Assembly: GCF_964204645.1 (NCBI RefSeq)
Contig: NC_134029.1
Coordinates: 8,582,850-8,646,849, forward strand
DNA length: 64,000 nt
Direction: 5' to 3'
Source: Tubulanus polymorphus
Taxonomy: Eukaryota; Animalia; Nemertea
Notes under the pieces: generated by a model
Database searches by the model: none
Told to the model about the DNA's origin: nothing
The model's input: the letters and a program-made list of their open reading frames with translations, nothing else
In this document: in pieces, positions 34,901 through 63,660 of the stretch
Layout: the number at the start of each line of letters is the position of its first letter
Position numbering within the stretch: position 1 is the stretch's first letter
Program-made: the position numbers and the translations under genes

Positions 34901-34934
34901 ACGCTATCAAAAGCGCTCCCAGTTGTTGCTCCAT
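28939..34934 (-). CDS. GRL101-like LGR-family GPCR with CUB, C-type lectin, LDLa and LRR ectodomain, copy 1 (~1,940 aa, 3 exons)
   Basis: Exons 34934-33723, 33632-32295 and 32223-28939 joined by phase-0 GT-AG introns of 90 and 71 nt. Signal peptide, CUB (GYIVSPNYP), CTL (LNWENAELYC...WTDG), multiple LDLa (CDGxxxCxDGSDE), LRRs, hinge STCSDLM, 7TM with TGVCLP and NSSLNPLLY. Confidence 0.9.
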
Positions 34935-37607
34935 AGCAAACAACACGATACAATGAATGAAATTCCTTCACGATTCAAATTCTGCCCCGTTGTCCACGGA
35001 TCTTCAAGTCCAATCAATTAATGATGTAGAATTCTAAATTTCTTACTTACTAAATGAATTATTCACTCTATTTCGCAAGAATATTCAATTTCAGTCGTAA
35101 ATATTGACGCACGGCCAATTATATTTTTAACATGCTTAAATCAATTTTCGTGTCGTTCGCGTTTTTTTTTTGTCTGGATGATAATCTTTTACACAATACT
35201 TTATCATTTTCGCTGGTGTACTGCGCATATATATAGAACACGTCATTCCGTCTAGCACCACCAATTTCATAAAGCCCGCAAATGCGGAATTTGATAGAAA
35301 AGTCCCTAGCCGTGAAGGAAAAGATCAGAGTTGTTGATTAAATCGAGGAATGACCTGAATTGGAATTATTGTGGGATCAACAGGGTTAATTCAGCTATTA
35401 GTAACGTTACCTCTCGGTTTGCTGATCTCCTTTTATGTTACCAGTTGCCGACATCATAGTTCCCGCTTAAGTTTGACTCTGGCAATTATTGAGTCGAGAA
35501 ATCCGTTCATTTTCGATATGTCCGTGTAACACCTTGTGAAATCTTTACCAAGAACGTTTAAACCATATCCTAGTTTGTTTTTATTGTAAAGTCCACTTTC
35601 GGTTATTTTCAACTTCTGGAGGAACTAATAAACCTCGTGTATAGTTTTGTGTATATTAAGTGTTTCGTCTTTCATCTGGGGTTGACGCGTTTTTTACCAC
35701 TATTTGATTCATGAAAAATGAATGAACTGTAACATTTAACCAATGAAATTCCTCGGATCCACTCGGAATTTTGAGTTTCATGCTTAACATGAACAAATCG
35801 GGAAAACTCAGGGAATTTGTCAATTTTGTAGAAAGTGGCCACCCTGATTAAAAGAAATTCAAAATTAGGAAGAAAATACGGCTCGACTCATCCGTGAATG
35901 AAAGTTGAAACTACAATGGCGTTTGTACGATTGTTCTCGAGGGAATACCTGGTGGCGACACCGTTAATCGGGACGAAAATTCCTTAGATAGCAAATACTT
36001 GGGGAATGTCCAGAAAATAACTCCTGAGTCTCGTAAACCTTAGATAGTTACAGAGTATGGCGTGACACAAATTCGCATATCACTTTTTACAAAACGCCCC
36101 CCTTCCCCCACCCCTGGTGGCACCACCAAAAAGTTGATAAAAAACTGTTAGAATACAGAGAAAATATGACTCAAATAAAAATTGACGCCGGACGGACGGC
36201 TCACCCCATACCCTACCTCACCTTTGGTCACAGCGGAGCTAGAAAAAAGCGATAGACGATGGAATACTTGGAAAATCTGTACCGACCTCAAATAAAGTTC
36301 TATATAGTGTGCCCATGTCACACTTGCAATTAAAAGAAAAAGACACATTCAAGGTTTTCGCTCCTTTGTTGCGAGCAAGCTGCGGAACCGGTGGCTGATA
36401 AGGATCATAGCGAAAATTTCTGGTATGCAAATCAGGGCTCCAGAACGCAAGAACGCCAAAACGAAAAAAACGTCAAATTTTCTCTGAAAGTTCGTTTTTG
36501 TGCGCCAAAACAAAGAATAATTCCGTTTACGCGCTCCCGCTAAAACGAACTTTCAACCACGTAAAATAATTCTATATATGAAAATTCATGCAAATTATAC
36601 ACAGGATCAACGCGCCAAATTGAAAAATAATTTTACTGTGGTTGAATCCTTTTTTGGCGGGGCGCCAAAATGGATTTAACCGCGCCAAAACGAAATCCTC
36701 TTTGTTTTGGCGCGCCTATTATACTGACCACCCCTCCCCCATCCGTACTACGGTACATTTTGAAAGACCCTTCGGCCTACGAATTGGCCATTAAAATTGT
36801 TGAGCTACCTTTAATTGAAAAACGCTCCGAGATATGCTCATTTCAGTCTACCGCTGGTTTACCGACCACATCGGTGCAGAACGATTTTGGCGGTATAAAT
36901 CGACGAGTATGGCGGTATATCGGGGCTTGTCAAATGATTACTCCAAGATCGGGGTGGTTTACTATGTATTTGTATTAGAGATGAACATTGAGAAAACCTG
37001 GCGGTAGGCGGGGGTGGTGGCAAATGGGAGGGCGGTTTATCGGGGTAGACTGTATATAAAATCAAGTAAGTAGCATATTTAGAGGGGGTGATATTACTAT
37101 AATATGATATTTTGCATCAGAATATCGCGAAATTTTTTATATCTGGTCCACAAAGTATGAACATTTTCTGAAGAGACTTGCTATCAGAAAAGTACGTACA
37201 TTCTTCTTAGAGACATGCTGGCAATGATATCAAGATCAATGGTGTGTTGAGTTATACGGTCACTGTTGCTGTTTGAAGTGCGAGTATTTGCAGACATAGT
37301 TTTTCTCGATGCTCGTTCGCGTCTCGACGTCAAAATCAATCGAATGGCTACAAGAATCACTGTCGGGATTATACTTTATAGGACTAACAAACTCTACTAT
37401 TTCAACTGTTCTTTTTTTTTACCTAATAAAAGTCCAAGTCCGTGTCCATCATTCGTGTCCAGTGCACTGATTAATGGAACAACGAGTAAAATATTTGTAT
37501 TGAATAATCGACATTGTCAGTAAACATTTATGTAGATATAACTTTTCTTCGTACGAATAATTCTAACAGCTTACAGATGCCAAAAAACAACATTAAAGCT
37601 GTACAGT

Positions 37608-38020
37608 AGTAATAGGAAAAGTAGGCTTTCATACCAGAGGACGAGAGGACGAGACACCACTCATCACCACAAGTAATTTTTTTTCCTAATAAATGGGGGA
37701 GAATGAACACCAGCCAGAAAACAATAATGTTAATAAAAATCAATATTATTGCACATGTTGTAAAAAATACGTTGATACATCTAATAAAACACGACATGAA
37801 AAAACTGCAAATCATATAAAAAATGTAATAGATTTTGAAACTCCAGAAAATTCCAATGAAAGAAAAGAAAGATTAGAAAATATGAATGTGGATGAAATAA
37901 AATGTGAAGTTTGTAATGAATTTATAGTAAAAAGGAATTATAATAGACATCTCGAATCACAAAAACACCATCAAAATTTGAGTAATAATGTTTTAGGAAA
38001 AGATTATTTTGATGATAAAC
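37608..38020 (+). repeat. Left terminal inverted repeat (413 bp)
   Basis: Reverse complement of 54367-54779. Similarity ends after GATGATAAAC. Confidence 0.93.
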
Positions 38021-41000
38021 CTCAAAAAGTAAAAAAACCAAATTCAAAAACTTAATCCATTTCAAATAAACCTTACATGGAAAATGTTAGAAATTATATT
38101 GATTCACTAGAAATAAAAGATACAATTGAAATTTTAGAAACATTACATAGTAAAATTGGTCCTGCAGCTATTATATTTAGATTTTTTAAAGGTACAACAA
38201 TAGAAGATTATAGTAAATTAAATGAAATAATAGAAAAAATACTAGATTTGATAACAGATGTTGAATATCCAAAAATTAGTATCTCTGGGAAAGTAAGTTT
38301 TATAAAGTCAGAAGAAAAAATGAATTATAATATTCAAACACTCTCTGAAGAAATAATTTCAAAAACACAAATAAAGAGAAGTTAGAAAAAATATTTAATG
38401 AATTTAAACGTCATATTGAAGAAAGATATTTTGAGGGTTCTGGCTTAACATTGAATGAAATTATATATTTAGATTTAAATGTTTATAATACAAAAAGAAA
38501 TAAAACATCAAAAAGTAATAAAATGTTCAAAATGAAGATAATAAATGTTTTCTATGGTCAATTATTAGTTGTTTACACCCAACAGAAGATATGACGCATA
38601 GTTTTAGAATAACAAATTACCGGAAATATGAAACATTATATAAAATTGATCAATATCCAGTAACTATAAAAATGATTCCTAAAATAGAAAAAGTTAATAA
38701 TTTAAAAATAAATGTATTCGAATTAATGCAATTACCAAAGACAAAAGGTGAAAATATTAAAGATTATACATTGGAAGCTTTATATTTAACAGAATATTAT
38801 GATGATGAAAATGCTATAGATTTGTTATATTACAAAAAAGATGAAAATGAACATTATATGTGGTTAAAACAAATTGATTTATTCTTTAGAACAGAAAGTG
38901 ATCACCATAATAAAATTTATCTATGTAGAAAATGTTTATCTAAATTTATGACTGAGAATACATTATTAAAACATAAAGAATTATGTGATAATAAAGATTT
39001 TTGCAAATTAATAATGCCAACAGAAAAAGATTATAAATTGAAATTTACTAATCATAAATTTAAAAATATTGTTCCATTTGTAATTTATGGGGATTTTGAA
39101 TCGTTGAATAAAGAATTAACTGATCAAGATAGAAAAGAAATATATAACAAAAAGCAATTATTAAAATCAATGGATAAAGGAAATGAATTAAATGAAGACA
39201 CAACACAAGATCCGCCAATTATAAATACAATTAAAAAAGTTCATCAAAGAGCTGCTGCTTATAGAATTTATATAAAATCAAATTATCCCGGTTTATATGA
39301 AAGTCAATATATTTCTTTTAGAGGTGAAGATGTAGTTAATGATTTTTGTAACAAAATGATTGAATTAGAAAGTGATTTTGCAAAATTATCAAACAAAAAT
39401 AAAAGAATATTTATGACAAAAGAAAATGAAATTGATTTTAATTATGCAACTCATTGTTGTTATTGTGAAAAACCTTTTTATTCATTTGATAAAAAAGTTA
39501 GAGATCATGATCATTTAAATTCAAAATATCGTGGAGCTGCTCATGAAGATTGCAATTTACAAGCTAAGAAAGTTAATTTCGTACCAATATTATTTCATAA
39601 TTTATCAGGCTATGATACCCATCTATTTATAAAACAATTATCAAAGAAATTTGGCACAATTAATCAAGAAATAGAAGAATATAATGCTATGAATGGTGTA
39701 AATGTAAGAAAATATGATTTTAAACTATTAGCTAAAACATCTGAAAATTATATTTCATTTCAATTTGGTTGCATTAGATTTTTAGATTCTTATAGATTTC
39801 TAGCAAGTTCATTAGATAATTTATCAAAAAGTTTAGTTGATAATGATTTTGTTATAACTCGATATTATTATCCAAATGACCAAGATTTTAAATTATTGAG
39901 ATATAAAGGTGCAATTCCTTATTCATTTTATAAAACACACAATGATTTTAATGTAACAGAATTATTAAAAGATCAATTTTATGATCAATTAAAAGAGGAG
40001 TATGTGAAAGACGAAGTGTTTAATAGAACATTAAATATTTGGAACCATTTAAGGATGAAAAATCATGGTGAATTAGTTGATTTATATTTAAAATCAGATG
40101 TTATGATATTGGCTGACATATTTGAAAAATTTAGAGAAGTCAATTTGAATCATTTTAATGTTGATCCTTGTTATTGCTACTCTAGTCCTGGTTTAACCTG
40201 GCAATGTGGTTTAAAATATACAAATGTAGAATTAGATTTATTAAAAGAACCAGATATGGTTTTATTATTTGAAAAATCAATTAGAGGTGGAATTAGTGGT
40301 GTTATGGGAGATAGGTATTTTAAAGCAAATGATGAATATAAATTATTATATATTGACGCCAATAATTTATATGGTTGGGCAATGATGCAGCCTCAACCAT
40401 ACAAAAATTTTATATTAACAGAAGTTGAAAATGATGATAAAACTAATTGGGAAAGCGCAACTATGAGTTTAGAAGATGAAGCACCAATTGGTTATTTCTT
40501 TGTAGTTGATTTAGAATATCCTGAAAATATAAAGTTTAAAACAAGAAACTTACCTTATTGCCCAGAACATTTAACTGAAGATGATAGTAATTTAAGTGAA
40601 TACCAGAAGAAAATAAAACCGAAAGATCATGTTTTTACAGAAAAATTAATACTTACTCAAAATAATAAATACAATTATATTGTTCATTATAGAATGTTAA
40701 AATTTTATCTAAAACAAGGAATGAAATTAAAGAAAGTACATAGATATATTGAATTTAATCAATCGAAGTGGTTAGAAAAATATATAGATTTTAATACTCA
40801 ACAGAGAACCATATCAAAAACAGATTTTGAAAAAGATTTCTTCAAATTAATGAATAATAGTTTTTATGGAAAAACATGTGAAAATATTAGAAATAGAAAT
40901 GATATTGAATTAGTAAATAATTCTGAACGATTAAGACATTTACAATCAAGTCCTAAACATTTAGGAAATAAAAGATTTGAAGATTATTTAGCAGCAGTTA

Positions 41001-42670
41001 AATTAAAAAGAACGTCAATGAAATTTAATAAACCTATATTTATTGGTTCAACAGTTTTAGAAGTATCAAAACTATTAATGTATGATTTTTATTATAATGT
41101 TTTACAACCACTTTTTGGGGAAAAGCATATTGAAATATTATATTTTGATTCTGTAACAGCTGACACCCCAATATTATTAAAATGTAATAATAAAATATTG
41201 GTAAGAAGAATTTCAGAAATAATTCCAAAACAAAATTAATGTTATATTTCATATGGTGAAAAAGAATTAATACAAATAAATGGATTAATGGATGTTTGGA
41301 CAAGAAATGGATGGAAAAAATTAAAGAATATTATTAGGCATAAAACAAATAAGAAAATCTATAGAGTTAGAACTAAATTAGGGTTTGTAGATGTTACAGA
41401 AGATCATAGTTTAATTAAACGAAATGGCGATGAAATAAAACCAACTGATATAAAAATTGGAGATGAATTATTACATAAAAGATTTTTCCAAAGAATGAAT
41501 CATATGTCATTTGATGAAATAATTGATAATATTTATAACATAGAACCCGAAACATTAGAAAGAAAAGAATATTTTATCAAAGGATTTTTCATGGGTGATG
41601 GTTCAGCAGGTGTGTATAATTATGTTAATCGCACTCAATATTGCTGGTATTTATGCAATCAAGACTTAAAATTATTAGAAAGAATAAAGAAATTCTGTGA
41701 AGAAGTTTATCCAAATAAAACATTTAAAATCATGGATGTTATGAAATCAACAGCAGTTTATAGAATACTTGTAAATAATCCTAAAGATTTTGCTATAAAA
41801 TATAATGATGAATTCTATATTCATGCAATAGTTAAAAGTAATACTTCAACAAAAGATAAGATAGTACCAGATTATTTATTAAATGCAAAAAATAATTTAA
41901 GAAAATGGTTCTTCATTGGATTCTATGCTGCAGATGGTTCAAAAAGTTTCAAAAACCGCAAAACAATATCTTTAGCTCAAAAAGGAAAAGTTGCTATATC
42001 AGGATTGAATATATTATGCAGTTCATTAGGATTTAATATGAATATTGGATTGATTAAATCTAAACCAAATTGCTTTAATTTAAGACATGTAGAAAATGAG
42101 TTAACAGAAGAAGTTAAAGATTTATTTGAAATATATAACCCAACTGACTATGTTTATGATTTATCAACAGATGATGGAACATTCAATTCTGGGTTCCCAT
42201 TAATCCAAAAAAATACCGACGCCTACATACTAAAAATCAAGACAAATGACATAACAAAAGACTTAAAAACATTAAAACATCATTTTGATTTTAGCACTTA
42301 TCCCAAAGATCATGAACTATTTAGCAATGATAATAAACAGATTCCTGGTAAATTTAAAGATGAATTAGGGGGTGATGAAATGATTGAATTTGTTGGGATA
42401 AGAAGTAAAATGTATAGTTACAGAACAAAAGATCATGAAGCTAAAAAGTTAAAAGGAATAACAAAACATGTGGTTGATAAACATATAGAATTTCAAGATT
42501 ATATAAAGTGTTTATATAAATCAATTGTAATGAAACACAAAATGAATTGTTTAAGATCAGAAGATCACGAGATGTACATTAATGAAGTTAAAAAAACTAG
42601 TTTGAATCCATTTGATGATAAAAGGCATATTTTAGATGATGGTATAAAAACATTACCTTATGGCCATTAA
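37693..42670 (+). pseudogene. polB: Protein-primed family B DNA polymerase (zinc fingers, vOTU-like protease, EndoVII/HNH insert, exonuclease, polymerase) containing an intein; disrupted
   Basis: EGSG, NEDNKCFLWS...EHY, IYGDFES, CCYC...RDHDH...HEDCN, FHNLSGYD, YIDANNLYGWAM, KLMNNSFYGK, YFD|TD, GKFKDE, SKMY, DDKR. In-frame stops at 38053 and 41237, frameshifts at about 38380-38520. Confidence 0.93.
41150..42214 (+). mobile_element. Intein with dual-motif LAGLIDADG homing endonuclease in PolB (355 codons, one in-frame TAA)
   Basis: Block A SVTADTPIL directly after YFD, block B VDVTEDHSL (TxxH), LAGLIDADG-like YFIKGFFMGDG and WFFIGFYAADG, block F YVYDLST, block G ending QKN followed by Thr. Removing it restores YFDTD. 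Confidence 0.93.
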
Positions 42671-43994
42671 AACATAAAATCAATATCATCATACTCGAAA
42701 TCACTATTGGCTTCTTCATTTTCATTTAATTGTTCTTGTATAATTTGTTTAGGTTCTTCCATTTCATTTTTCTCATTTAAATATAGTGCTATCTTGTACC
42801 ACATTTCATCTCGCTCTCTTTGTTTCTTTTTGTTCGTTAATTCATCAAATGGAATTATAATATCGATGTTTAAATAATTTACAATCTTATTTAAAAAGAA
42901 TTCATAATTTATTGAATCTGTTATTCTATTTTCCAAATGATACATTAATATTTGTTTAAATATTTTTTTTATATTTTCCATATCTTCTTCTGTTAATTTA
43001 GGTTTTTCATAATAATCGTTAAATAATAAATATAAACACATTTTCTTTTGTTTTGTGTTAAATGTTGACGGAATAATTGTTTTTATGATATCTTTTTTAG
43101 TTATTTCACCATTTTTATTTTCTATTATTTTCATTTTTTCATGCCATTGCATATATTCTGGTGTATGATCTTCTATAGAAAATATTTTAAAAATTTCATC
43201 TAGATAATTTAATTTTGGATCTATGAAAAAATTTCTAGTTTTTTCTTCACTCCATAAATTCTTTTGCCATCCACAATCAACACAAAATAACACAGTACCT
43301 TCTTGTCTTAAGGTCGCGTAATTACATTGTGGACATTATCGTTTATAATTTATTGGTAATAGATCTTCATTAAGCTCTTGGTATTTTCTTACGTTTTCTT
43401 TATGTTTTATTGTTCTATTATGTAGATTTGAATTACTTGTTGTAATAATCAATTTACAATATTTACAATAATATGTTTTTCTTGTTAATTGATTATATTG
43501 TTTTTCTAACTTTTCAACTGTTTCTTCATTATCTGGCAACGTTTTCTCATATTTTATTTTTTCTAATATATTATTTTTTCTTTCATTGAATTCAGTTTCA
43601 AATTTATTAGAAATTTTATCTATATGTGCTTTACGAAATTGATGATTCTCCCAATCTTCTATATTTTCAGGGTTATATCTTATTCGACAAGGCTCACAGA
43701 AATGATCTTTTATATTATCCTTATCATAGAATAAGAAAGGTCTTTTCCAAATAATTTCAGGTTCAACTTCAACAGAATTACTATTACTTTCATTACTATC
43801 AACATTAGCCGTTGCGCCATTAATTTTACACTTCTCTGAATGTTTTTAACATAATTTCTTGAGAATAATTTATTACATTTTGGGCAGTTTAGTTTAGGGG
43901 GTTTATAATTTTCTTCATGTTTTTTCATATGTCGAGCCATATTACTTTTTCTTAGAAGTTCACCACAAATTTCACATGCTATCTTCTCATCCAT
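42667..43994 (-). pseudogene. Zinc-finger + zinc-ribbon + poxvirus late transcription factor VLTF3(A2)-like protein; disrupted
   Basis: C2H2-like fingers (CEIC...HMKKH, CKYC...H). CPQC...CVDCG ribbon in frame across a single TAA at 43336-43338. The C-terminus INYEFFLNKIVNYL...RDEMWYKIALYL resembles the VLTF3 consensus (judged by eye). Confidence 0.65.
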
Positions 43995-44055
43995 TATTTA
44001 TTAGGGAAAAAAATTACTTGTGGTGATGAGTGGTAATTTTTTTATGTTATAAATA

Positions 44056-44820
44056 ATGGTAGAATTAAAAGAATACAGAATATTTGTTGATTCTAGAAAA
44101 CTTACAAATTATAAATCACATAATTTACTAGTTCAATTAGATAGAGAATTTAAGAATTGTGTTGATTTAAAATTAGTTAATATAAGTTTATGTAACTCAT
44201 TTTACAATATATCGGATAAAAGTTTTGATCATAGAGTCTTTTTAGTTTTTGAAAAAAGTAAAAATGAATTGTTTCCTCTATATTTAAACCCAGGTTTATA
44301 TAATTTAGAAACATTAGCCCAAGAAATTAATCGGAAAGCACGATTATATCTTGAAGGTGAAAGTGAATATAAATTTTCAATTAGATTTATAAAAAAGGAT
44401 AGTTCTGATAGAATTATAATAAAATTAAATGATGAAAGTAAACACGCATTTATGGTAGAGAAACCTTTAGCTAAACTGTTAGGAATTAAACCAAAAATTG
44501 TTACAGGAAACGTAAACGGTAATTCAAATATAATACCTTTTACACATTTTTATATTTATTGCAATTTAATTGATCCTACAAAAACATTTGAGGCAACTAA
44601 AGATACAATTTGTAATTCTAGTATATTAAATATTTTACCATTAAAGAATGTTAAACAATTTGGAACGCAAATAAATTATAATTTAGCTGAATGTGATTTT
44701 AAACCTTGTATTCCACATTTCAATAATTTCAAATTAGAAATAAGAAATCATAATGGATATTTAATTGATTTGAATAACTTTCCTGTGATATATGAATTAG
44801 TTATAAGATGTAAAGAGTAA
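44056..44820 (+). CDS. Putative minor capsid protein (penton, single jelly-roll)
   Basis: 254 aa, beta-rich. Pattern IFVDS...SFYNI...PGLYN...YIYCNLI...IRNHNGYLIDLNNFP is typical of Polinton/virophage pentons. Confidence 0.7.
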   Translation: MVELKEYRIFVDSRKLTNYKSHNLLVQLDREFKNCVDLKLVNISLCNSFYNISDKSFDHRVFLVFEKSKNELFPLYLNPGLYNLETLAQEINRKARLYLEGESEYKFSIRFIKKDSSDRIIIKLNDESKHAFMVEKPLAKLLGIKPKIVTGNVNGNSNIIPFTHFYIYCNLIDPTKTFEATKDTICNSSILNILPLKNVKQFGTQINYNLAECDFKPCIPHFNNFKLEIRNHNGYLIDLNNFPVIYELVIRCKE

Positions 44821-44836
44821 TTTTTTCATTATATAA

Positions 44837-45190
44837 ATGAATATAACTGTTGGACCGAGTATATGTTTTGGATTTGATTTTAAACGTGAGAAAGAAATGA
44901 AATTTAACATTAATGATGTAATTACACATATTAAAAATATTGCATTTTCTAATGAAACAACATTTAAGTATGAAAAAACAATAGATAAAGAAACTTTTAA
45001 TGTAGAAAAGATTACTAATTTAATTAGAGAATCTTTAAGATTTTATGAATTAGATGAAGATTTTATCATCGATGATATTAAAAGAATAATAATTGAAATA
45101 TATACAAATGAAACTAGTAATGAAATAAATGTTGATTTAATCATAAATAAGTTAACTAAATATTTTGAAGATAGTAATTTTTTTGATTAA
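44837..45190 (+). CDS. Polinton hypothetical protein
   Basis: Intact 117-aa ORF starting at TAAATG. Confidence 0.6.
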   Translation: MNITVGPSICFGFDFKREKEMKFNINDVITHIKNIAFSNETTFKYEKTIDKETFNVEKITNLIRESLRFYELDEDFIIDDIKRIIIEIYTNETSNEINVDLIINKLTKYFEDSNFFD

Positions 45191-45193
45191 TAA

Positions 45194-45415
45194 ATGAGTG
45201 ATAATAAGTGGATAATAACTGGATTATATAATGGCACCTTACTATCAGTTGGAACTGTTGGTTATTCAATGGTATTTAAAAAAGTATTTAAAATGGGAAG
45301 TGTTAATGTTGATAGATTTGATATAAATGATATCTTAAAATTAACATTTGCAGTTACTTTATCTAATTTAACTATTGATTATTTAGAAAAACAAAAATAT
45401 ATTCCTCCCATATAA
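45194..45415 (+). CDS. Small hydrophobic Polinton protein
   Basis: 73 aa, TAAATG start, ends DYLEKQKYIPPI. Confidence 0.65.
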   Translation: MSDNKWIITGLYNGTLLSVGTVGYSMVFKKVFKMGSVNVDRFDINDILKLTFAVTLSNLTIDYLEKQKYIPPI

Positions 45416-45439
45416 ATACATAATTTTTTTGTTAAATAA

Positions 45440-45862
45440 ATGGCTTCTGCAATTATAACTATTATAGGATCGGCAATTGTTAACGCTTTAGCATTTACTG
45501 GTGGTGGATATTTATTTAAGCATATTGATAAAAATGGATCATTAACAGAACAAAAAAGACATAACTTAGCATTATAGAAATACAATAAAGCAGCAGAAGA
45601 ATATAGAGAAAAAAGACAAAACTATATGGATTATATTAACAAGGAATTATATGATCAGAAGATTTCACATAGAGATTTTCAATCAGTTGATGATGCAATG
45701 AGTTTATATAACGCGGTAACAAATAAAGAAAAATTACATCTATACAAACCTAAATTATCAGATTGTTATACCCCAAGTAAAGAACAACAGAAATATGAAA
45801 TAATATGGATTTTAGGTGGAACTGTTATTGTTATATTTGTAGCATATAAATTTACTAATTAG
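45440..45862 (+). pseudogene. Polinton membrane-associated protein (NALAFTGG...KRHNLA), one nonsense codon
   Basis: ATG 45440 is in frame with ORF 45626-45862 across TAG at 45575-45577. Hydrophobic N- and C-termini. Confidence 0.7.
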
Positions 45863-45881
45863 TAATTTTTTTTCTAAATAA

Positions 45882-46316
45882 ATGGAAGATAAAGTTGATA
45901 GTATTGATATTATTCCTCATGATATAAATAAAACTAAATTATAAATATATTTAGAAAAACAAATATTAGAATTTGAAAGTGACTTAAAGATAAAAAAGAA
46001 AAAATATTTAAAAAGTAAAATTATATATTATTTGATTATAAGTGGTTCGGTTACAATTAGTTCTGTAATAACATTTCTAGCAATATTCAGTCCATTTACA
46101 CCTTTAGCTATATCAATTGGTGTATCAGGATTAAGTTCAAGTGTTTTAACTGGTATAAGTTCAAAATTAAATATAAAAAGTAATAAAGAAAAAATTAAAA
46201 CTAATATAAAAGAAATTAATAAATTAAAGAATACACTAGATTATATAATAAGTTTAAAAGGTCATATAACAGTTGAAGAACAAGATAAATTATTAAAAGA
46301 ATTAGTTAATTATTAA
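45882..46316 (+). pseudogene. Two-TM-segment/coiled-coil protein, one nonsense codon
   Basis: TAAATG start at 45882 is in frame with ORF 46032-46316. Confidence 0.6.
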
Positions 46317-46332
46317 TTTTTTTATTATATAA

Positions 46333-47641
46333 ATGGGGTTTCCAAAAGCTTTCCGATATAATAAATCACATGAATATTATAAATATAATACTCCAGCAAT
46401 AGATTTTAGTAACATGATAATATATAAAAATTTAGTTTTACCTTCATTGATTAATTTAGAAATTTATGTTACTGAAACAAACTATTTTATTTCTAAAATG
46501 GAAAATATATTTAATACATATGAAGTTACTTTTACTCGAGATGAATATAATATATATAAAGTAAAATCTAATATGAAATATTGGCAGAATCAATTAAATG
46601 TTGCTGTTCATTGTGCAACAGCTGGTTGTGGTGTAAGTTGGCATGATCACTTGAATAACTTAGATAAGAATTTGAAATATTCTGATTTAAAATTCATTCA
46701 TACAATATTTAGATTTCATGTATACTTTCAAATTAGAATTATATTAAATGAATTTGAATGCCCTTTACCTGGATCAAAATATTTTAAAGAATTGGATAAT
46801 AATATTAATCTATCTAAGTTTTATAAAATATGTAATGAATTTTATAAATATTAATTTCGATTTTAAAGCGCATGGTAAATTGCAAGGTGTTGGTGAAGAG
46901 TTTGAAATAAAAAGAATTGATTATATGCATAGAATTAGAGCTTATCATAATTATAAAATTGATAATAATAATGGTTGGGTTTATTTTATTGAATCTTATA
47001 GTGAAGGATTCACAAAACCTGGAATACAAAGAATAAATCAATCAATTAGAACTTATTTGATATGTATTTTAGGTGCGCAAGTTGAAACAAGATCACCAAT
47101 AGTTGGAAATAATAGTACTTCATTTGATGCGCAAAAACAATTCAAAGTTTTATTTGAAGATTCCATTCATAATGATAAAAATAGATCGATTCCAGAAAAC
47201 ATTGTAAGATATCAAAATTATTTAGATAAATCTCACGTAAGACTAAATTATTGTATAGGCCCTAATCTATTAATTATTTCTAATGATTTAGTATTAAAGA
47301 TGGGAAAAATAATTGGTTATAATAATCTAATTAAAACTGCAACAATAAATAATTCAATTGGATTAGATGATATAAATAAAAAGATTATTACTGCTCCAAA
47401 ATTAATGGAAGGTGAAAAAAATAAAAAACATATTCAATCAACAGAAACTAAAACTAAGAATATTAAATTGGATAATGATTCCAAAATAAAAGATTACAAT
47501 ACTACAGAAAATATTAAAACTGATAATATTCAACATGATATAATAAAAACTGATAATGATAATAAATTACATGAAAATACTAAATTAGCTTTAACTTGTA
47601 TAGGAATTGTTATAGGAGGAATATTATATTTTGAATTTTAA
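46333..47641 (+). pseudogene. Polinton protein (WQNQLNVAVHCATAGCG) with C-terminal TM, frameshifted near 46850
   Basis: Two overlapping ORFs (173 and 297 aa) with a single TAAATG start. Confidence 0.65.
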
Positions 47642-47657
47642 TTTTTTTATTATATAA

Positions 47658-49108
47658 ATGGATGTAGAAGGTGGAGAAGATATTGGAATGGATCCTTTTG
47701 ATGAACCTGGCATAACTGATGAACAACAACCTGATTTTAGTGAAACAAGTTTTAATGACGGTAATGAGCCAGGATATAATAATAATTTAAATATGCCTGA
47801 TTATATTAAAAATGCAGAATCACAATTAAATCCTGAAAATTGAAACCCAGATTTAGTAAAACAAGATTTAGATAATTTAAACAAAATACCTAAATTAGAA
47901 GATTTAATTGAAAAATCTAAACTTAACATAAATGATGAAGACGTTGGACTTTTAGCAGATCAATTAAAATTTCTAGATAATGGTAAATGTTATTATCGTT
48001 TGAAAGATGATTATTATATTGATATCACTTATAAAAAAAAATAATAACAAAATTAACTTTGAGAAAATTAGATCCAGATAGAATTAAAAGAATTAGTAAT
48101 AGTAATGTAATAACTGATGTTATAAAACAAGAATTAACTGATAATGATATAGACGTATTCAAACAAAGAATTAATGAATTATTTGAAATAATCAAAAAGA
48201 AATCAGAAACAGAAACAACTTCTGAACAGAATATAACTTCCAAAACTAGTAAACTTAAATCAAATAAAGTTCCAATTGAAAAACTTTTACCGAATGGATT
48301 ACTTGATGCAACAGATCAAGAATTAGAAGATTTAGATATATTTTCTGATAAAGCAATTAGAGAAATTATTAGTATAAGACTTGCATCTGATAAAATTGCG
48401 CATGATAAAAGTATAAGAGATTTTAAGATTAGAACTTTAGAAAAAGAATTAACTGATAAAAATAAAGAAATAGAAAAAATAAAGTCTGATTTAGATCATC
48501 AAGTAATTGATGAAATAGAATATAGGCAAAAAGAATTACGTTTAGAAAAAGAAAAAGATGATTTAGAATATAACATAGAATTACAAAAAGAAGAAATTAG
48601 ATTATTATTAAAATCATATGATTATAATATTAATAGATTAAAAGATGTTTTTAAAAGATATCTAATAAAACCAGATTCTAAAATATCATTGAAAGATAGA
48701 ATAAAATTATTATTTAAGTTTGAAGGAATAACAATTCTTTCAATTCTAACAGCTGTAACTATGTTATTTACAACAATTGGTTTAGCAATATCAAATGCTT
48801 TAAAATCTACTCCTACTCCCAATAAACCAGATAAACCTCCAGATAATAATTCTATACAAGATAAAGTTAAAGATGGTTTAAAGAAATTAGCAAAATATTT
48901 ATTGGAACTATCTAAAAAATCTGCTGCAGCATTACCAGGAATTATTGCATCAATTGTTGGTTTTATATTGAAATCTGCTGGGAATATTCTTAACTTTGCT
49001 GCTGAACATATTATTTTATTTTTAATTACAGTTGTAAGTGCTATTATTTTTGGGTTAGTGAATATGATATCAAAAAGATATCAAGAAAAAATAATAAAAA
49101 ATAAATAA
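47658..49108 (+). pseudogene. Acidic N-terminus/coiled-coil/hydrophobic C-terminus protein, disrupted
   Basis: Single TAAATG start at 47658, TGA at 47841, frameshift near the A-run at about 48035, then a 349-aa coiled-coil + TM portion. Confidence 0.6.
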
Positions 49109-49128
49109 TTAATTTTTTTGTTAAATAA

Positions 49129-50376
49129 ATGAGTGGGAGTTATATAAGTCCTTCTAAGATTTCTAGAATATCTAATGCTATTAAAGCAGAAAGATCACAT
49201 CATATAATTACTCATAATCCTTCAAATATTAATCCCGATGAAACTTTATATGTTAGAATTCCTCGATTAACACAAAATACTTTTTATGTTCCAAATAGTA
49301 TTTATTTATCAGCTGATATAAAAGTAATTGGTCATGATAATAATTATGTTGTTGATAATGTTGGGAGATATTTGATTAAAAAATTAACTATAAAGATTGG
49401 TCCAGAAACAGTTTTCTCATTAGATGATTATAATTTATTTATGCATTATAAAGATTTATGGTTAACTAAAGAAAATAGAAATAATATAATATTTCAGGGT
49501 ATTCAATCGGAAAACCATAATAAATTAAGATCTGAAGCCAATAATGCAGTAGTAACTAATGCTGTAGATAATCTGATTAAAAAGATTTATGGAAGCAAAT
49601 ATAAAATTCCATTAGACTTTGAATTGATAAATAATAATGCACCTTTATATAAATATGTAATTCAAGAAGGTATTATATTTGAGATAACATTTGCTCCTGT
49701 AAATGAAATTGTATTATCTAGCGTTGTTAAAGATATGGGTTATAAATTATCAAATATATGTTTAGAATATGACACAGTAACTAATGAAAATATTGCTAGC
49801 ACAATTCAAACTCAATACAATCAAGGATTTTCATTATTATATGATTATATTGATAAATTTAAAACTGTAACTATCAATGCAAATGATGAAATAATTAATG
49901 AGAATATTAACTTCCCAAGAAGATCTATTAAAGGTATATTAATATTTTTTACCATTGCAACATATTCTAATGGCGCAATAAAGGTTGATAATTATTATAA
50001 TCCTGAAATAACAAAAGTAGAAATAACTATCGAAGGAATAGCAAATAAAATATTTTGTCAAGGAATGAGAATGATTGATCAATGGCCAGAAATTAGAAAA
50101 CATTTTATGAATGAAAAAGTAAAATCATTTGAAAATTGTAATATTAATCAAATTGATTATTATACCGGCAATAAATACGCACTATGGTTAGATTTTAGAA
50201 CAACAGAGGATAATTCATTACATGGTTCTGGGAAAAAACTACAGAACACAAAAAATGGAATACAATTATTCATGAAAAAGAAAAAAGGAAGCTTAAATTT
50301 TAAAATGCACATATATATTATATCTGACGCACAATTAAATATTGTAAATTTACAATTAGGTAGTATTCAATATTAG
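49129..50376 (+). CDS. Putative major capsid protein (double jelly-roll)
   Basis: Intact 415 aa, beta-strand rich (NPSNINPDETLYVRIP, LSNICLEYD, NINFPRRSIKGILIFF, ALWLDFRT). Lies next to the integrase and ATPase genes. Confidence 0.75.
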   Translation: MSGSYISPSKISRISNAIKAERSHHIITHNPSNINPDETLYVRIPRLTQNTFYVPNSIYLSADIKVIGHDNNYVVDNVGRYLIKKLTIKIGPETVFSLDDYNLFMHYKDLWLTKENRNNIIFQGIQSENHNKLRSEANNAVVTNAVDNLIKKIYGSKYKIPLDFELINNNAPLYKYVIQEGIIFEITFAPVNEIVLSSVVKDMGYKLSNICLEYDTVTNENIASTIQTQYNQGFSLLYDYIDKFKTVTINANDEIINENINFPRRSIKGILIFFTIATYSNGAIKVDNYYNPEITKVEITIEGIANKIFCQGMRMIDQWPEIRKHFMNEKVKSFENCNINQIDYYTGNKYALWLDFRTTEDNSLHGSGKKLQNTKNGIQLFMKKKKGSLNFKMHIYIISDAQLNIVNLQLGSIQY

Positions 50377-50406
50377 AAATATAAAGTTAAAATTAACGAT
50401 ATATAA

Positions 50407-51534
50407 ATGGGCGGTAAAAAAACTCCTAATACTAAAGAACAATATCTAATAAATTTATATTACAACCCTGAGAGTTCGGTTGCTTATTCTTCTACCAAAA
50501 ATATATGGCGTCAAGTAAAACAAGATAAATTAGATAAGATAATCCCACAAAATTTAGTTAAATATAAAGATATAAATGAATTTATGTTAGAACAACCAAC
50601 ATACGCAACACATAAAAAAATTGTTAGAAAATATAAAACTCGTAAAACTATGGTAAGTTATGTAGATCAACAGTGGCAAGGAGATTTAATTGATATGAAA
50701 AATGTTAAGAAAGATAATGATGATTATTGGTGGTTATTGAATATAATTGAAATTTTTAGTCGTTATGTATGGAGCTTCCCACTTTATAGAAAAGATGCTG
50801 TACAAACATCAAATGTTTTAAGAAAATTTCTTTCGGATGATAAACTAAAACCAGAAAAAATACAATTTGATGATGGAAAAGAGTTTGATAATTCACTTGT
50901 TCATGAACTCTTAGATAATCATAATATTGAATATTTTTCAACAAAATCGGATAAAAAAGCAGCAGTTGTTGAACGATTTAATAGAACATTAAGAACAAGA
51001 ATGTGGAAATATTTTACAGCAAATAATACTTTTAAATCGATTGATGTTTTACCAAAATTGATAGAAGGATATAATAATTCTTATCATTCTTCTATTGGAA
51101 TGAAACCTATTGATGCTAGAAAACCTGAAAATGCTGAAATTGTTTGGAATAATTTATATGGAGCATTTCTTGTAGATGATTTTGGTGAACCTAAATTTAA
51201 AGTTGGTCAAAATGTTAGAATTTCTAAGTATAAAAAGATATTTGATAAAGGATACGATCGAAATTTTACTAGAGAAATATATAAAATAAAAAAGGTAATA
51301 ACAACAAAACCATATGTCTATAAATTAGAAGATTTAGATGGTGAAGAAGTTGATGGCTACTTTTATGAAGAAGAATTAAGTTTAACTACTGAAAATCTAG
51401 AACAAGAATATAAAATTGAAAAAGTATTAAAGACAAAAACTATTAAAAGAAAAAAATATTCTTTAGTAAAATGGGTTGGATGGCCAGATAAATTCAATGA
51501 ATGGATATTATCAAGTAAAATTAAAAATATATAA
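50407..51534 (+). CDS. Retroviral-like (rve) integrase with C-terminal chromodomain
   Basis: DDE triad WQGDLID / QFDDGKEF / VVERFNRT. Chromodomain EYKIEKVL...LVKWVGWPDKFNEWI. Consistent with the 6-bp TSD. Confidence 0.95.
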   Translation: MGGKKTPNTKEQYLINLYYNPESSVAYSSTKNIWRQVKQDKLDKIIPQNLVKYKDINEFMLEQPTYATHKKIVRKYKTRKTMVSYVDQQWQGDLIDMKNVKKDNDDYWWLLNIIEIFSRYVWSFPLYRKDAVQTSNVLRKFLSDDKLKPEKIQFDDGKEFDNSLVHELLDNHNIEYFSTKSDKKAAVVERFNRTLRTRMWKYFTANNTFKSIDVLPKLIEGYNNSYHSSIGMKPIDARKPENAEIVWNNLYGAFLVDDFGEPKFKVGQNVRISKYKKIFDKGYDRNFTREIYKIKKVITTKPYVYKLEDLDGEEVDGYFYEEELSLTTENLEQEYKIEKVLKTKTIKRKKYSLVKWVGWPDKFNEWILSSKIKNI

Positions 51535-52143
51535 ATGAATAAGGAATTATTTATATTTGAGCCTCATAATATGTTAATTTCTGGTGTAACAAATTGTGGA
51601 AAAACTTATTTTATATTAAATTTATTAGAAACTGTTTATGAAAACTATTTTGATAATATAGTATTATTTTGTCCAACATATGAATTTAATCAACCTTATG
51701 ATAGAAATATTACTAGAAATAATAAATTTATTATATTAGATCCTAAAACAGTAAAAGAAAATTTAGATAATTGTATTAAAATAGCAATAGATATTTATAA
51801 AGGATCAAATACATTATTCATTATAGATGATTGTGCTTATCTACATGATTCAAAAGTTAGAGAGAGTGAGTTATGCTATTTAGCTTTTTCTGGCAGACAT
51901 TTTGGGATAACAACTTGGGTTTTAAATCAAAAATATAATTCAATTGTTAAAGACTTTAGAGAAAACATTAGATTTCTAGTTTTATTCTACAATAAAGATA
52001 GAAAATCGATGAAAAATGCACTTGAGGAAAATGATATTATTCCACATGATTTACATAATGAATATATGGATAAGTTGAAAAATATTAAAAGATCAAAATT
52101 ACTATTTAGATTACAACACCCATTTAAATATGAATTTATTTAA
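51535..52143 (+). CDS. A32/FtsK-like genome packaging ATPase
   Basis: Walker A GVTNCGKT, Walker B LFIIDD, SGRH motif, LNQ. Confidence 0.9.
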   Translation: MNKELFIFEPHNMLISGVTNCGKTYFILNLLETVYENYFDNIVLFCPTYEFNQPYDRNITRNNKFIILDPKTVKENLDNCIKIAIDIYKGSNTLFIIDDCAYLHDSKVRESELCYLAFSGRHFGITTWVLNQKYNSIVKDFRENIRFLVLFYNKDRKSMKNALEENDIIPHDLHNEYMDKLKNIKRSKLLFRLQHPFKYEFI

Positions 52144-52145
52144 AT

Positions 52146-52420
52146 TCAACTAGCTTGTTAATCTAGTTGAATTCTAGTTACATTCTAGTTGAATTCTAGT
52201 TATTGGTAGTTGTAACAAAAATCAACTAGATTTAACAATATTTTAACTAGCTTGTTAATCTAGTTTAATTCTAGTTACATTCTAGTTGAATTCTAGTTAT
52301 TAGTAGTTTGAACAAAAATCAACTAGATTTAACAAGAAATAAATAAAAACAACAATATTTCAACTAGCTTGGTAATCTAGTTGAATTCTAGTTGCATTCT
52401 AGTTGAATTCTAGTTGCAAC
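52146..52420. repeat. Three ~100 bp repeats built from AACTAG/CTAGTT/GAATTC modules
   Basis: AACTAGCTTGxTAATCTAGTT...ATTCTAGTTGAATTCTAGTT recurs at about 52148, 52245 and 52362. Confidence 0.85.
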
Positions 52421-52447
52421 ATCACAACTAATTTTTTTGTTATATAA

Positions 52448-52960
52448 ATGGTAGGTGAAAAGAAAATAAAATCTAAAAATGGTGATGTTCAAATTGAAAA
52501 AACTTTAGATGATTTAGGAATAACAGAAACAAAATTAACTCCAGATGATGGTGCTTTAAATAATGTTACAACAAATAATAATTATGAATATTATCTTTAT
52601 TGTAAACATCAATTAGAAATATTAATAGCATCTGAAAATGCAAAAATTTTGTCGGTAAAAATTTAACTTATAATGAATTAGATACAATGAAATCAGATGA
52701 AATTATTAGATTATCTAAGATTTATGAAGCCGCGAGAACAGCTAGAATTAATGACGCGATATCAGGAAATGTAGTAAAAGGTTATAGTAAATCATGTAAT
52801 TATATACTACTAATTGAAGATGAAAATAGATTATATTTTATTTAAAAAATGATTATTTAGTTATGACTGAATTAAATAAATGGATTGGATATTTATAATT
52901 TCAATTAGGTGGATTTATGACATTATTATCAACTGGGGTTATAACATTTTCAAATATTGA
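52448..52960 (+). pseudogene. Polinton hypothetical protein, frameshifted
   Basis: TAAATG start. Coding-like sequence continues in other frames after 52666. Confidence 0.45.
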
Positions 52961-52983
52961 AATTAAAAATATTTCTATAATAA

Positions 52984-53352
52984 ATGAGCGAGGTGGAAGA
53001 AGTGAAGGAATTAACTATGAAGAAAAAACCGAGATCACAGAAACAAATTGAATGGTCTCGGCAATTAGGGATTAAATCACAAGAATATAAAAAAGCTGTA
53101 AAAGAAAAAATAAGTAATAAAAATGTTAATAAAAATAGTGAAAATATTGTTATTTCTACTCCTTCTAATGATAGAATATTTGATAAATGTCTATATTTTA
53201 CAGTTGGATTTGTAATTGTATTCATTTTGATTGGGTGTAATTGGTATAAGAAATCAAATAAAATTCACGATATTAATAATTCTGAAACAACTGCTATTAA
53301 AAATGAAAATACTTCTGAAATTCCAAAATTGATAATGAAAAAAATGGATTAA
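52984..53352 (+). CDS. Polinton protein with basic N-terminus and one TM segment
   Basis: 122 aa, TAAATG start, YFTVGFVIVFILIG. Confidence 0.65.
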   Translation: MSEVEEVKELTMKKKPRSQKQIEWSRQLGIKSQEYKKAVKEKISNKNVNKNSENIVISTPSNDRIFDKCLYFTVGFVIVFILIGCNWYKKSNKIHDINNSETTAIKNENTSEIPKLIMKKMD

Positions 53353-53514
53353 TATTTTAGAAAAAAAGCAAAAAAAAATAATTTTTTTTAATTAATTGAA
53401 TATTAATTGAATATCTCACTACTTTTGTCTATCTATGAGGCGCAATTAAATTGTCCAGATAAGTCATTTCGGATTCTAGATATTCATTATTTTTATTAAT
53501 TTATTTTTTTAAAT

Positions 53515-53841
53515 TTAATCAACAATTTCTAAATCATGATGGCCATCTTCATTTTTTCCATGATAGATTATTTTAAATCCTTCTAAATCTTTTAATTCCT
53601 CTGTACTCAATGAAGCCCATTTATCAGGTAAAAATACTTTAAATTCTCGCGATGTACTAACATTACAGTAGCTTAAATTCGCTGATACTTTCTCTCCATA
53701 TTTAGTTTTTATCTTTTCTAATTTCAATATTTTATGTTCAATTTCTTTTGTAACATCAACTAACTTTTTTATTTCAAATTGTTCTTTTGCTGGTTTTATT
53801 CTGTTATTTATTGTTGCTAAGAATGCTTTTCTATCTCCCAT
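53515..53841 (-). CDS. Small protein, possibly OB-fold ssDNA-binding
   Basis: 108 aa with a TKYG...VFLP pattern, preceded by the 22-bp motif and TAAATG. The function is inferred. Confidence 0.55.
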   Translation of the reverse strand: MGDRKAFLATINNRIKPAKEQFEIKKLVDVTKEIEHKILKLEKIKTKYGEKVSANLSYCNVSTSREFKVFLPDKWASLSTEELKDLEGFKIIYHGKNEDGHHDLEIVD

Positions 53842-54211
53842 TTATAAGGAAAACAAATTACTTGTGGTGATGAGTGGGATTACTTCCCCCTATATAACAA
53901 GCACGCTATTAACCGTTCTCACCCAAGCCTCACAGCATCTATTTATACGGGCACAGTTGACCCGCAATCACTGTACTACAGTAATAGCATGCGCGTTAAT
54001 AACCGTTCTCAGTAGCGACTCACTGTATCGATCTATCCACGCGCAGCTGTTGTTACGCGCACTCACTGTATATGTGTATCACAGAGCAATCGTCCGTTCT
54101 CACAAGAGCCTAGCTATGATGAGTGGTGTCTCATACCCGGTTAATATTTTATTTTGAGTTATGATATTTTGAATTAAGATGGTGTGATTTATTGCTTCGA
54201 GTATAATATTT

Positions 54212-54694
54212 TCAACAATCACATAACACTTTTTCATTAGGTTCATATTTAGGTGTAACAATTTCATTATCTAAGTTACATTGAACTGCAACATCTTTAT
54301 ATGATTTTTCATTAACTAATCCACATTGAATACCAATATTTGATGAATTTTCATTATAGATAATTTGTTTATCATCGAAATAATCTATTCCTAAAACATT
54401 ATTACTTAAATTTTGATAGTGTTTTTGTGATTCGAGATGTCTTTTATAATTCCTTTTTGTTTTAAATTTATCACAAACTTCACATTTTATTTCATCCACA
54501 TTCATATTTTCTAATCTTTCTTTTCTTTCATTGGAATTTTCTGGAGTTTCAAAATCTATTACATTTTTTATATGATTTGCAGTTTTTTCGTGTCGTGTTT
54601 TATGAGATGTATCGATGTATTTTTTACAATATGTGCAATGATATTGATTTTTATTAACATTATTATTTTCTGGCTGGTGTTCATTCTCCCCCAT
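54212..54694 (-). CDS. Zinc-finger protein starting inside the right TIR
   Basis: First ~109 aa are nearly identical to the PolB N-terminus (two CxxC...H...H fingers). The unique C-terminus is homologous to ORF 62955-63608. Confidence 0.65.
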   Translation of the reverse strand: MGENEHQPENNNVNKNQYHCTYCKKYIDTSHKTRHEKTANHIKNVIDFETPENSNERKERLENMNVDEIKCEVCDKFKTKRNYKRHLESQKHYQNLSNNVLGIDYFDDKQIIYNENSSNIGIQCGLVNEKSYKDVAVQCNLDNEIVTPKYEPNEKVLCDC

Positions 54695-54779
54695 TTATTA
54701 GGAAAAAAAATTACTTGTGGTGATGAGTGGTGTCTCGTCCTCTCGTCCTCTGGTATGAAAGCCTACTTTTCCTATTACT
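54367..54779 (-). repeat. Right terminal inverted repeat (413 bp)
   Basis: Reverse complement of 37608-38020, followed by TSD TACAGT. Confidence 0.93.
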
Positions 54780-56132
54780 TACAGTCAACCCCCAATTACC
54801 GCCCTCCCTTATACCGCCACCCCCGCTGATCGCCGCCGGGGGTTGACCGTATATGCGTAGCTATCGACAATGTTATCAAATCACTGATAATTGGAAGTCT
54901 AATGTTCTTGGCGTACAAGCGCTTACAGCGTGGTATATTTCAGCAGTTACGTCCTGTGATAGTGTGTGACTGTGCAGCCAAAGCTGTAAGTCAAATGCGA
55001 TCTATGACACACACAGATAAACATGTCCGCAACAGGCAAACGTGAGAAAATGAATATGCCGGTGTTGTTTGAACATTTGATAATAATACATATAAAATAC
55101 AGTGAATTTATGCCGAAACCGAAGATCGTAATGCTGAAAATGACGTAGTGATATATGAATGATCAGATTTACGTGAAACGGTTTGTAATCAGCATGAGGG
55201 ATTTTGTTACAGATTTCATAAGATTATCATTTATTACATTTTAATGGATTGATTCAAGGAAAAAAAAATTGTTCAGTAGTCCTTTAAATGATGTTTTGAC
55301 GAGCATCTTAGGTAGAATTGACGGGTCATTTTTATGTTCAGTTTTGACGGGTAAAATTGTAAGATTGAGGGTAAATTTGATATTTCATTTTGACAGTACA
55401 TTTATAGCTATGCCATTATATTTGGCTTAACCAAAATCCAGGACAAACAGACTGGCTCCCCATTATCAGTTCATCCAAACTTGGGGTAGCAAAATATGGG
55501 AAAAGAAAAAATTTTAAAACTATTCAGATTGATTGGGTAACACTTTAAACTGAAGATCACGTATCTTACTGTATGAGCTGCCAATTAATCACGACGAATA
55601 CGAACGGAACTCCGCAAAAACGATCAAGCTTATTGTTTAAAAAAAGAACGTTTTAATCTTGCATGAAACGAACGATTTTGCGAGAAATGTAACTAAGGCG
55701 ATCCAGGTATATTAGCAATCCATATCCACAACACTTAGAATCTTGAAAAAGTATATAGCGCACCAATTCTAGAAACGTCCAGATATCACGTTAAATTGCT
55801 AAACCGTGAAAAGAAGCCAACGTATAAAACTAGGCAAGTATACTTGGTTAACTATATTTTTAGATAAAAAGTGAAGTATCGATTTTTAAGCCTGTATTAT
55901 TTTGAAGATTTTCTGCATTATATTTTCATGTATGAATTTTTCAGACAATTTCTTAGTCAGGAGAATAAAGTTATAACTTGATAATAGGATAGGACTAAGG
56001 ACTACGATTCGGACAACCAATTTTTTGCTCCCGAGAAACAGAATCATGAATGCAGAAAACCCGTTATCGCTGCAGTGCAGCTATATTAGGGGTTGTTGCT
56101 CGATCATCTCTCCTTCCCCTGCAGCATGTTAT

Positions 56133-62100: not shown

Positions 62101-62131
62101 CTATCAAAAGCGCTCCCAGTTGTTGCTCCAT
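56133..62131 (-). CDS. GRL101-like CUB/CTL/LDLa/LRR GPCR, copy 2
   Basis: Same three-exon structure as copy 1 with all ORFs open (413, 450 and 1081 aa tracks). Scattered substitutions and one extra codon. Confidence 0.9.
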
Positions 62132-63608: not shown

Positions 63609-63660
63609 CAATTCTACATTATAATTATTGAATTGAGTTAAATGATTTAAATATCTAATA

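Follow-up and report, generated by a model that had tools for sequence, protein, structure and literature searches.

How are the genes of a virus-like element transcribed once it sits in an animal genome? The question is raised by a 64,000-nucleotide stretch of the nemertean Tubulanus polymorphus (contig NC_134029.1, positions 8,582,850 to 8,646,849; hereafter the window), which holds at 37608-54779 a Polinton/Maverick element of 17,172 bp and 24% GC, compared with ~39% GC in the host background. A sequence-only reading of the window had proposed, from signals at the gene starts, that a polymerase of the poxvirus or nucleocytoplasmic large DNA virus (NCLDV) type transcribes this element. Our analysis supports a promoter-like signal that matches poxvirus post-replicative promoters in both sequence and spacing, and confirms that the uniform TAAAT signal is a trait of one capsid-defined Polinton clade.

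All 16 recognizable gene starts of the element carry TAAAT, 14 as TAAATG and two as TAAATAATG. TAAATG supplies the ATGs at 37693, 44837, 45194, 45440, 45882, 46333, 47658, 49129, 50407, 51535, 52448 and 52984 on the forward strand and at 53841 and 54694 on the reverse strand; the TAAATAATG starts are at 44056 (+) and 43994 (-). Each of these coordinates had been given exactly by the sequence-only reading, and the loose upstream T-run that it described proved to be something sharper, a 9-mer core that begins exactly 16 nt ahead of TAAAT and leaves a 7-bp spacer. The core is TAATTTTTT at 12 starts, TAATTTGTT at one, TAAAATTAA at two (integrase and ATPase) and AAAAATATT at one, and TAAWWTTWW lies exactly 7 bp before TAAAT in 14/16 starts. 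Its position is tied to TAAAT and not to the ATG (it begins 19 nt before the ATG where the start reads TAAATG and 22 nt before it where the start reads TAAATAATG), as expected for a promoter acting at the DNA level. At the 43994 start, a three-letter gap in two contigs of run X1 converts TAAATAATG to TAAATG.

The association with starts is strong. An ATG follows TAA in 48 of the 682 ATGs in the element, at 14/16 starts versus 34/666 others (binomial 9e-17). The two-part motif TAAWWTTWW-N4-WWW-TAAAT occurs 14 times, always at a start and never in the host flanks, compared with a mean of 0.3 and a maximum of 2 in 200 Markov nulls; other spacers (0-9 except 4) yielded one match altogether. As this motif was derived from the same 16 starts, relatives provide the independent test. 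Checking the starts without recourse to the motif, we found that intact orthologues align from residue 1-5 at nine of the 16 (44837, 45194, 45440, 45882, 46333, 49129, 51535, 52448, 52984) and from residue 3-13 at 44056, 43994, 50407 and 53841, while 47658, 37693 and 54694 rest on the first ATG of the open reading frame (ORF).

The arrangement corresponds to that described for vaccinia late promoters, in which a T-containing core stands 5-7 bp ahead of TAAAT(G/A) (PMC5294985): the element has the same T-containing AT core, a spacer of 7 bp and TAAAT(G/A) over the start codon. Poxvirus intermediate promoters are likewise reported to combine an AT-rich core with a TAAA initiator, which the viral polymerase reads directly (PMC12917281), and a fish poxvirus to retain TAAATG at conserved genes (PMC4542343). 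The element differs from poxviruses in being an integrating 17-kb unit without an RNA polymerase and, as known here from sequence, in using the signal at 16/16 genes, compared with about a third of starts (13/35) in two entomopoxvirus-type loci.

To ask whether relatives share the signal, we used a capsid alignment to retrieve, from 248 confirmed metagenome loci, the best 80, plus two from genome bins, and scored the first ATG of ORFs of at least 70 aa in 13 conserved clusters, requiring 35 nt of upstream DNA. The clade was defined as capsid identity of at least 50% (16 loci) after the pattern had first been noticed at the capsid start, and was then tested with a tree. TAA precedes the ATG at 52/62 clade starts (16 loci) versus 4/369 in other Polinton loci, all four from the integrase cluster, so that a uniform poxvirus-type promoter at all genes sets the element apart from the other sampled Polinton lineages. 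Among other ATGs within clade loci, 93/2,297 are preceded by TAA. In a quick capsid tree, which omits two clade loci with partial capsids, 14 clade loci, the window and three proteins fall on one branch (Shimodaira-Hasegawa-like approximate likelihood-ratio test 98), and no capsid start outside that branch has TAAATG (0/46 loci). Ten clade starts are exceptions; in four of them a close variant is present, TAAAT lying one to four letters ahead of the ATG, and several others look as though they begin inside truncated or broken ORFs.

The geometry re-emerges in the relatives as well. Across the 52 starts, positions -18 to -12 are more than 90% A/T, T stands at -12 in 46, and positions -11 to -8 tolerate C/G. 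Divergent gene pairs carry TAAATG on both sides in 7/10 cases, five of those seven separated by just 20-31 bp. The motif is kept in clade loci of 40-44% GC and despite changes in gene order, and its retention between loci that are rearranged and have capsids as little as 50% identical implies long-term selection. A close relative has the same promoter in front of a deoxynucleoside kinase gene (L001:10343-10981, reverse strand), a gene type useful for viruses replicating away from host nuclear pools.

Could the motif instead reflect AT content, translation context, stop-start coupling, a TATA box or the polyadenylation signal of the upstream gene? The element is 76% AT, and AATAAA and TATAAA each stand just before the ATG at about half of the window starts (21/52 and 21/52 in relatives). 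TAAAT is invariant, however, and these two are not. The sequence-only reading would have been undone had AT content and translation-start context explained the motif, and the enrichment it called for, against AT-matched sequence and across related Polintons, is clear: where upstream AT is at least 80%, TAA precedes the ATG at 43/50 clade starts versus 1/51 elsewhere (Fisher 6e-20). Position -3 is T, not a purine, in 44/50 AT-rich clade starts, whereas it is A in 36/51 starts of other Polintons, the opposite of a translation-context effect. TAA doubles as the upstream stop in 2/69 cases, the motif occurs at terminal and divergent genes that have no upstream gene, and the core spacing is fixed to TAAAT. 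A TATA box abutting the ATG would make RNA polymerase II (Pol II) initiate within the ORF. We thus regard a non-promoter origin as very improbable. Several AT-rich Polintons outside the clade (L016, L018, L024, L027, L032, L033, L044, L081) have TAAAA or TATAAAAA abutting the ATG of several genes, which may be an A-rich start context or a different promoter type.

The genes behind these promoters, and the ends of the element, are as follows.

37602..37607, forward strand: target-site duplication TACAGT, 6 bp, with a perfect second copy at 54780-54785.
37608..54779, no strand: Polinton/Maverick element with AGT...ACT ends; the empty paralogous host site is at 27691.
37608..38020, forward strand: left terminal inverted repeat (TIR), 413 bp, 96% identical to the right copy.
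37657..37695, forward strand: promoter 1, extra CCACTCATCACCACAAG box, TAATTTTTT core and TAAATG, preceding a zinc-finger ORF, the likely beginning of the polymerase gene.
37693..42670, forward strand: protein-primed DNA polymerase B with a zinc-finger region, split into several pieces (PF03175 1e-19; PF14528, PF14890).
42667..43994, reverse strand: C2H2 zinc-finger and VLTF3-like late transcription factor, broken, three pieces (PF04947 1e-5).
43992..44058, no strand: back-to-back promoters, both TAAATAATG by sequence, with one CCACTCATCACCACAAG box in common.
44056..44820, forward strand: penton, a single jelly-roll minor capsid protein (predicted fold, mavirus penton E 5e-12).
44818..49108, forward strand: six conserved genes, several small and hydrophobic, each after core and TAAATG (starts 44837, 45194, 45440, 45882 (SLATT-like), 46333, 47658); this copy has interruptions in the last four.
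49110..50376, forward strand: promoter and double jelly-roll major capsid, ATG 49129 (predicted fold).
50388..51534, forward strand: A-rich core promoter and rve integrase with chromodomain, ATG 50407 (PF00665 3e-9).
51516..52143, forward strand: A-rich core promoter, within the integrase coding end, and A32-type packaging ATPase, ATG 51535 (domain match).
52429..53352, forward strand: two conserved genes, ATG 52448 (interrupted) and ATG 52984, both at TAAATG (orthologues).
53515..53877, reverse strand: conserved 108-aa gene after box, core and TAAATG, ATG 53841 (orthologues).
54212..54730, reverse strand: second copy of the zinc-finger ORF, lying in the TIR behind a promoter identical in type to promoter 1, ATG 54694.
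54367..54779, reverse strand: right TIR, partner of the 413-bp left TIR.

The element has what defines a Polinton/Maverick: TIRs with AGT ends and a 6-bp target-site duplication, a protein-primed polymerase B (in pieces) and an rve integrase, and a double jelly-roll major capsid, penton and A32 ATPase. The paralogous host repeat at 27691 represents the unoccupied insertion site. No adenovirus-type maturation protease, which is typical of group 1, was matched by Pfam in the 22 element ORFs, some of whose genes are unannotated or broken. By its description the element is nearest the variable Polinton 'group 2', including the SLATT-like gene (10.64898/2026.06.19.733378). The predicted capsid fold (predicted local distance difference test 84) matches PBCV-1 and grouper iridovirus capsids (E ~1e-15), with the mavirus capsid ranked below them; the capsid tree holds no reference virophage capsid, and a PDB sequence search with the capsid gave no match. 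The start of the polymerase gene is presumably 37693, and its longest intact piece (38591) has no motif at its start. This polymerase holds an intein/LAGLIDADG endonuclease insert at ~41152-42200 (+), without which its homologues aligned; homing-endonuclease or intein inserts are already described in Polinton polymerases (PMC11161782).

Host DNA at 27400-37600 and 54780-62500 consists of a ~10-kb repeated unit in which CUB, C-lectin and LDLa-LRR-GPCR ORFs run long and uninterrupted, gene families that suggest an animal host, and the Polinton is inserted where two such units meet. A second AT-rich element, which begins with the same AGTAATAGG end, occupies 62542-64000. Its 217-aa ORF (62955-63608) is similar at the DNA level to the C-terminal portion of the ORF at 54694 and contains an internal ATG preceded by TATAAAA, not TAA; 12-bp tandem repeats extend to the window end. 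Within the Polinton, the non-coding stretches 52140-52430 and 53900-54110 contain short repeats (TCTAGTT-rich, and AACCGTTCTCA three times in a GC-richer patch) and are possible origin or regulatory regions.

Which machinery would read such a promoter? The VLTF3-like gene offers one lead. Its domain matches PF04947 at 25.7 bits (cut-off 25; Atlas 0.96) and the CxxC pairs are visible, giving both the zinc ribbon and the domain of VLTF3 (A2L family). A search of 1.84 billion representatives with the VLTF3-like domain returned three Polinton-type relatives, all below Pfam detection, and one other match, an entomopoxvirus-type VLTF-3 (E 6e-4) that is 60-63% identical to named entomopoxvirus VLTF-3 proteins; a word-based search with the VLTF3-like piece gave 0/299 candidates. 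Two of the three relatives also have the N-terminal zinc-finger fusion, and contigs of equal length (16,883 and 12,994 bp) suggest that these relatives occur alongside close capsid homologues. In profile-profile comparison, a profile of the four Polinton-type proteins reached 96% against entomopoxvirus VLTF-3 but 59% against the VLTF3 of other large viruses, and entomopoxvirus-type rows ranked 1-5, 7 and 13 of 85, with AT-rich non-pox loci scoring far lower. These comparisons support a domain that, by sequence, appears most like poxvirus-type VLTF-3. VLTF3 has already been reported in a Polinton subgroup (PMC11131425, PMC8502044). Searches of IMG/VR found no capsid relatives and no Polinton-type VLTF3; scans of it with the promoter pattern (32 loci, and at least 120 loci) returned mostly chance matches, the few enriched large-virus loci being biased by the pattern.

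We favor, at somewhat better than even confidence, a reading in which core and TAAAT(G) form a post-replicative promoter for a viral RNA polymerase, supplied during co-infection by a large DNA virus of likely pox-like type, and the clade would live as a virophage-style parasite that is also resident in an animal genome. What recommends it is one promoter type at 16/16 starts, the fixed 7-bp spacing, clade-wide conservation, the lack of an RNA polymerase gene and the presence of a VLTF3-like gene. Vaccinia polymerase is described as starting within TAAAT and slipping on three template Ts, which yields a 5' poly(A) leader running into the AUG (PMC6211774). By analogy, the helper polymerase would start within TAAAT, slip and add such a leader, putting A in place of the unfavorable T at -3. 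All genes, polymerase and integrase included, would be turned on together as the helper reaches its post-replicative phase; the VLTF3-like gene and the polymerase-side ORF use the same promoter type, so that no separate early class is evident. The element would replicate by its own protein-primed polymerase, package in its own capsid and insert via its own integrase, and the zinc-finger-VLTF3 fusion may recruit the helper's late machinery or compete for it. From these features we infer that the element is helper-dependent. Virophages are known to use helper promoters (PMC8547959; 10.1101/2022.07.28.501842; PMC6401483), and Polinton-like viruses have been reported in entomopoxvirus occlusion bodies (PMC11296320).

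How specific the signal is to poxviruses bears on the identity of the helper. Per-locus background of TAAATG starts is 0-10%, and non-pox large DNA virus records enriched for such starts include L290, L308 and L282 (G021-G023) and L236, L237, L256 and L263. TAAATG may be a general signature of late genes driven by VLTF2/VLTF3, and the signal is best named a large-DNA-virus post-replicative promoter, as specificity to poxviruses was not found. Candidate helper classes share the motif, and no helper from this host was seen. That the helper is specifically pox-like is accordingly a tentative proposal, and the transcription claim of the sequence-only reading holds in part: the poxvirus-like promoter sequence and spacing and the VLTF3-like domain stand, and a poxvirus polymerase itself is a candidate reader, TAAATG being enriched in other large viruses as well. 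Its suggestion that the element is an antiviral asset of the host found no support, and this copy has several broken genes.

A number of observations weigh against helper transcription or its pox-like form. Around VLTF3 genes, TAAATG is found at 67/278 starts in one other large-virus group and 79/686 in the remainder. Three records with VLTF3 and TAAATG at 5/30, 6/28 and 6/31 starts have no Rpb1/Rpb2 match at 90, 87 and 100% estimated completeness (two further records were checked: both subunits are present in one, and the other reaches just 62% completeness), and the signal may thus work with host Pol II. The scan for an RNA polymerase subunit or capping gene found none on the element or in 20 relative ORFs, its sole match a sub-threshold Rpb1 (E 0.086). 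Poxvirus-type T5NT terminators are not evident after genes (9/60 sense versus 10/60 antisense); T5NT is depleted on clade coding strands (19 observed, 50 expected), yet T5, T6 and A6 runs are depleted too. The VLTF3 tree pairs Polinton with entomopoxvirus rows, but with long branches, a tool warning and compositional bias, and it sampled no chordopoxvirus, asfarvirus or egovirus. That the family is apparently multi-copy in the host requires access to the nucleus. Finally, four starts bear an additional box at which a host factor could act, though it has no upstream counterpart in relatives.

Several of these points would also fit a self-directed nuclear program, in which host Pol II reads the promoter, guided by the element's zinc-finger-VLTF3 protein, on the model of large DNA viruses that retained VLTF2/VLTF3 after losing their polymerase, and the extra box gives a first round of expression. 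The box, CCACTCATCA, occurs five times (37657, 44033(-), 53877(-), 54126(-), 54730(-)); four copies extend to CCACTCATCACCACAAG immediately before promoters, all of them of non-structural genes: zinc-finger-VLTF3, the 108-aa gene and the zinc-finger ORF in each TIR. The box may be bound by the element's zinc fingers or by a host factor, and it could bootstrap expression. The zinc-finger fusion is seen again in relatives, records without detectable RNA polymerase still carry VLTF3 and TAAATG starts, and ariadnaviruses, which depend on the nucleus, are reported to keep VLTF2, VLTF3 and TFIIB (10.64898/2026.08.29.747986). Domain searches of the element ORFs, however, detected no VLTF2, TBP, TFIIB or capping enzyme, and the gene for the activator is itself driven by the same promoter. 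No upstream counterpart of the box was found at genes of the 16 clade loci, and the box-bearing promoter cassette, 93-97% identical among copies, resembles a recent duplication. AATAAA is undepleted on the coding strand (51 in 12.4 kb), though the same holds in other Polintons and does not separate the clades. On balance we consider Pol II transcription of this kind rather unlikely.

The state of this copy raises another option, that the promoters are a relic or part of a dual mode, going back to a helper-dependent ancestor or to a free-virus phase, and that genomic copies now spread otherwise or not at all. Several genes are interrupted here. In three runs of one organism, 15,128, 3,983 and 3,217 contigs that align to 36800-53400 cover all 30 bins in identity classes from <90 to >99%, a depth that is not a copy number, and suggest a multi-copy family in the host; that many of these contigs are divergent would suit a relic. 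A single run, taken to be RNA as a guess, had depth in only 4/30 bins and gives no evidence either way. Set against decay are the 16/16 intact promoters, TIRs 96% identical and a perfect target-site duplication, together with the retention of the signal across the divergent capsids and rearrangements of the clade, and we judge this explanation quite improbable.

Compared with known systems, the element shares with Maverick/Polintons (Polintoviricetes; adintoviruses) its TIRs, 6-bp duplication, protein-primed polymerase, rve integrase, A32 ATPase, double jelly-roll capsid and penton. Mavirus and the endogenous mavirus-like elements (EMALEs), Sputnik and Gezel-14T of protists are likewise described as small integrating double jelly-roll viruses with a large-virus promoter (PMC8547959; 10.1101/2022.07.28.501842). 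Unlike these, the element has an animal host, a capsid probably of the Polinton and not the lavidavirus lineage, TAAAT instead of TCTA or AAAATTGA, and no matching helper identified. The Polinton-like viruses associated with entomopoxviruses (Barth et al. 2024, PMC11296320) are also small and double jelly-roll and are proposed parasites of invertebrate poxviruses; at 11-13 kb and from occlusion bodies, they are set beside the element by description, and the main text of that report makes no mention of promoter, motif, transcription or VLTF. The yeast cytoplasmic linear plasmids pGKL1/2 also combine a protein-primed polymerase with a TAAAN initiator giving 5' poly(A) leaders, and differ in having their own polymerase and capping enzyme and neither capsid nor integrase (PMC6211774). 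An egovirus preprint ties pox relatives to protist Polintons via KilA and makes no mention of a promoter. Our literature search, which had most subscription journals outside its reach, found no account of such a promoter in animal Polintons. Helper-promoter sharing in protists, VLTF3 in some Polintons and polymerase inteins were known already.

A clade-wide promoter of the large-DNA-virus type makes the mode of transcription of these elements cheaply and concretely testable. If they are driven by Pol II, they would reveal a role of VLTF3 without a viral polymerase. If they depend on a helper, provirophage biology would extend from protists to animals, the absence of particles in healthy tissue would be explained, and such elements would be pointers to unknown large viruses of invertebrates. 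It is possible, though we hold it as a conjecture, that this widespread animal Polinton clade consists of endogenous virophages of poxvirus-like viruses, with all genes on pox late machinery and a captured, zinc-finger-fused late factor. Were this true, aquatic invertebrates would be predicted to have pox-like viruses that await discovery, and there would be a first route to waking Polinton virions.

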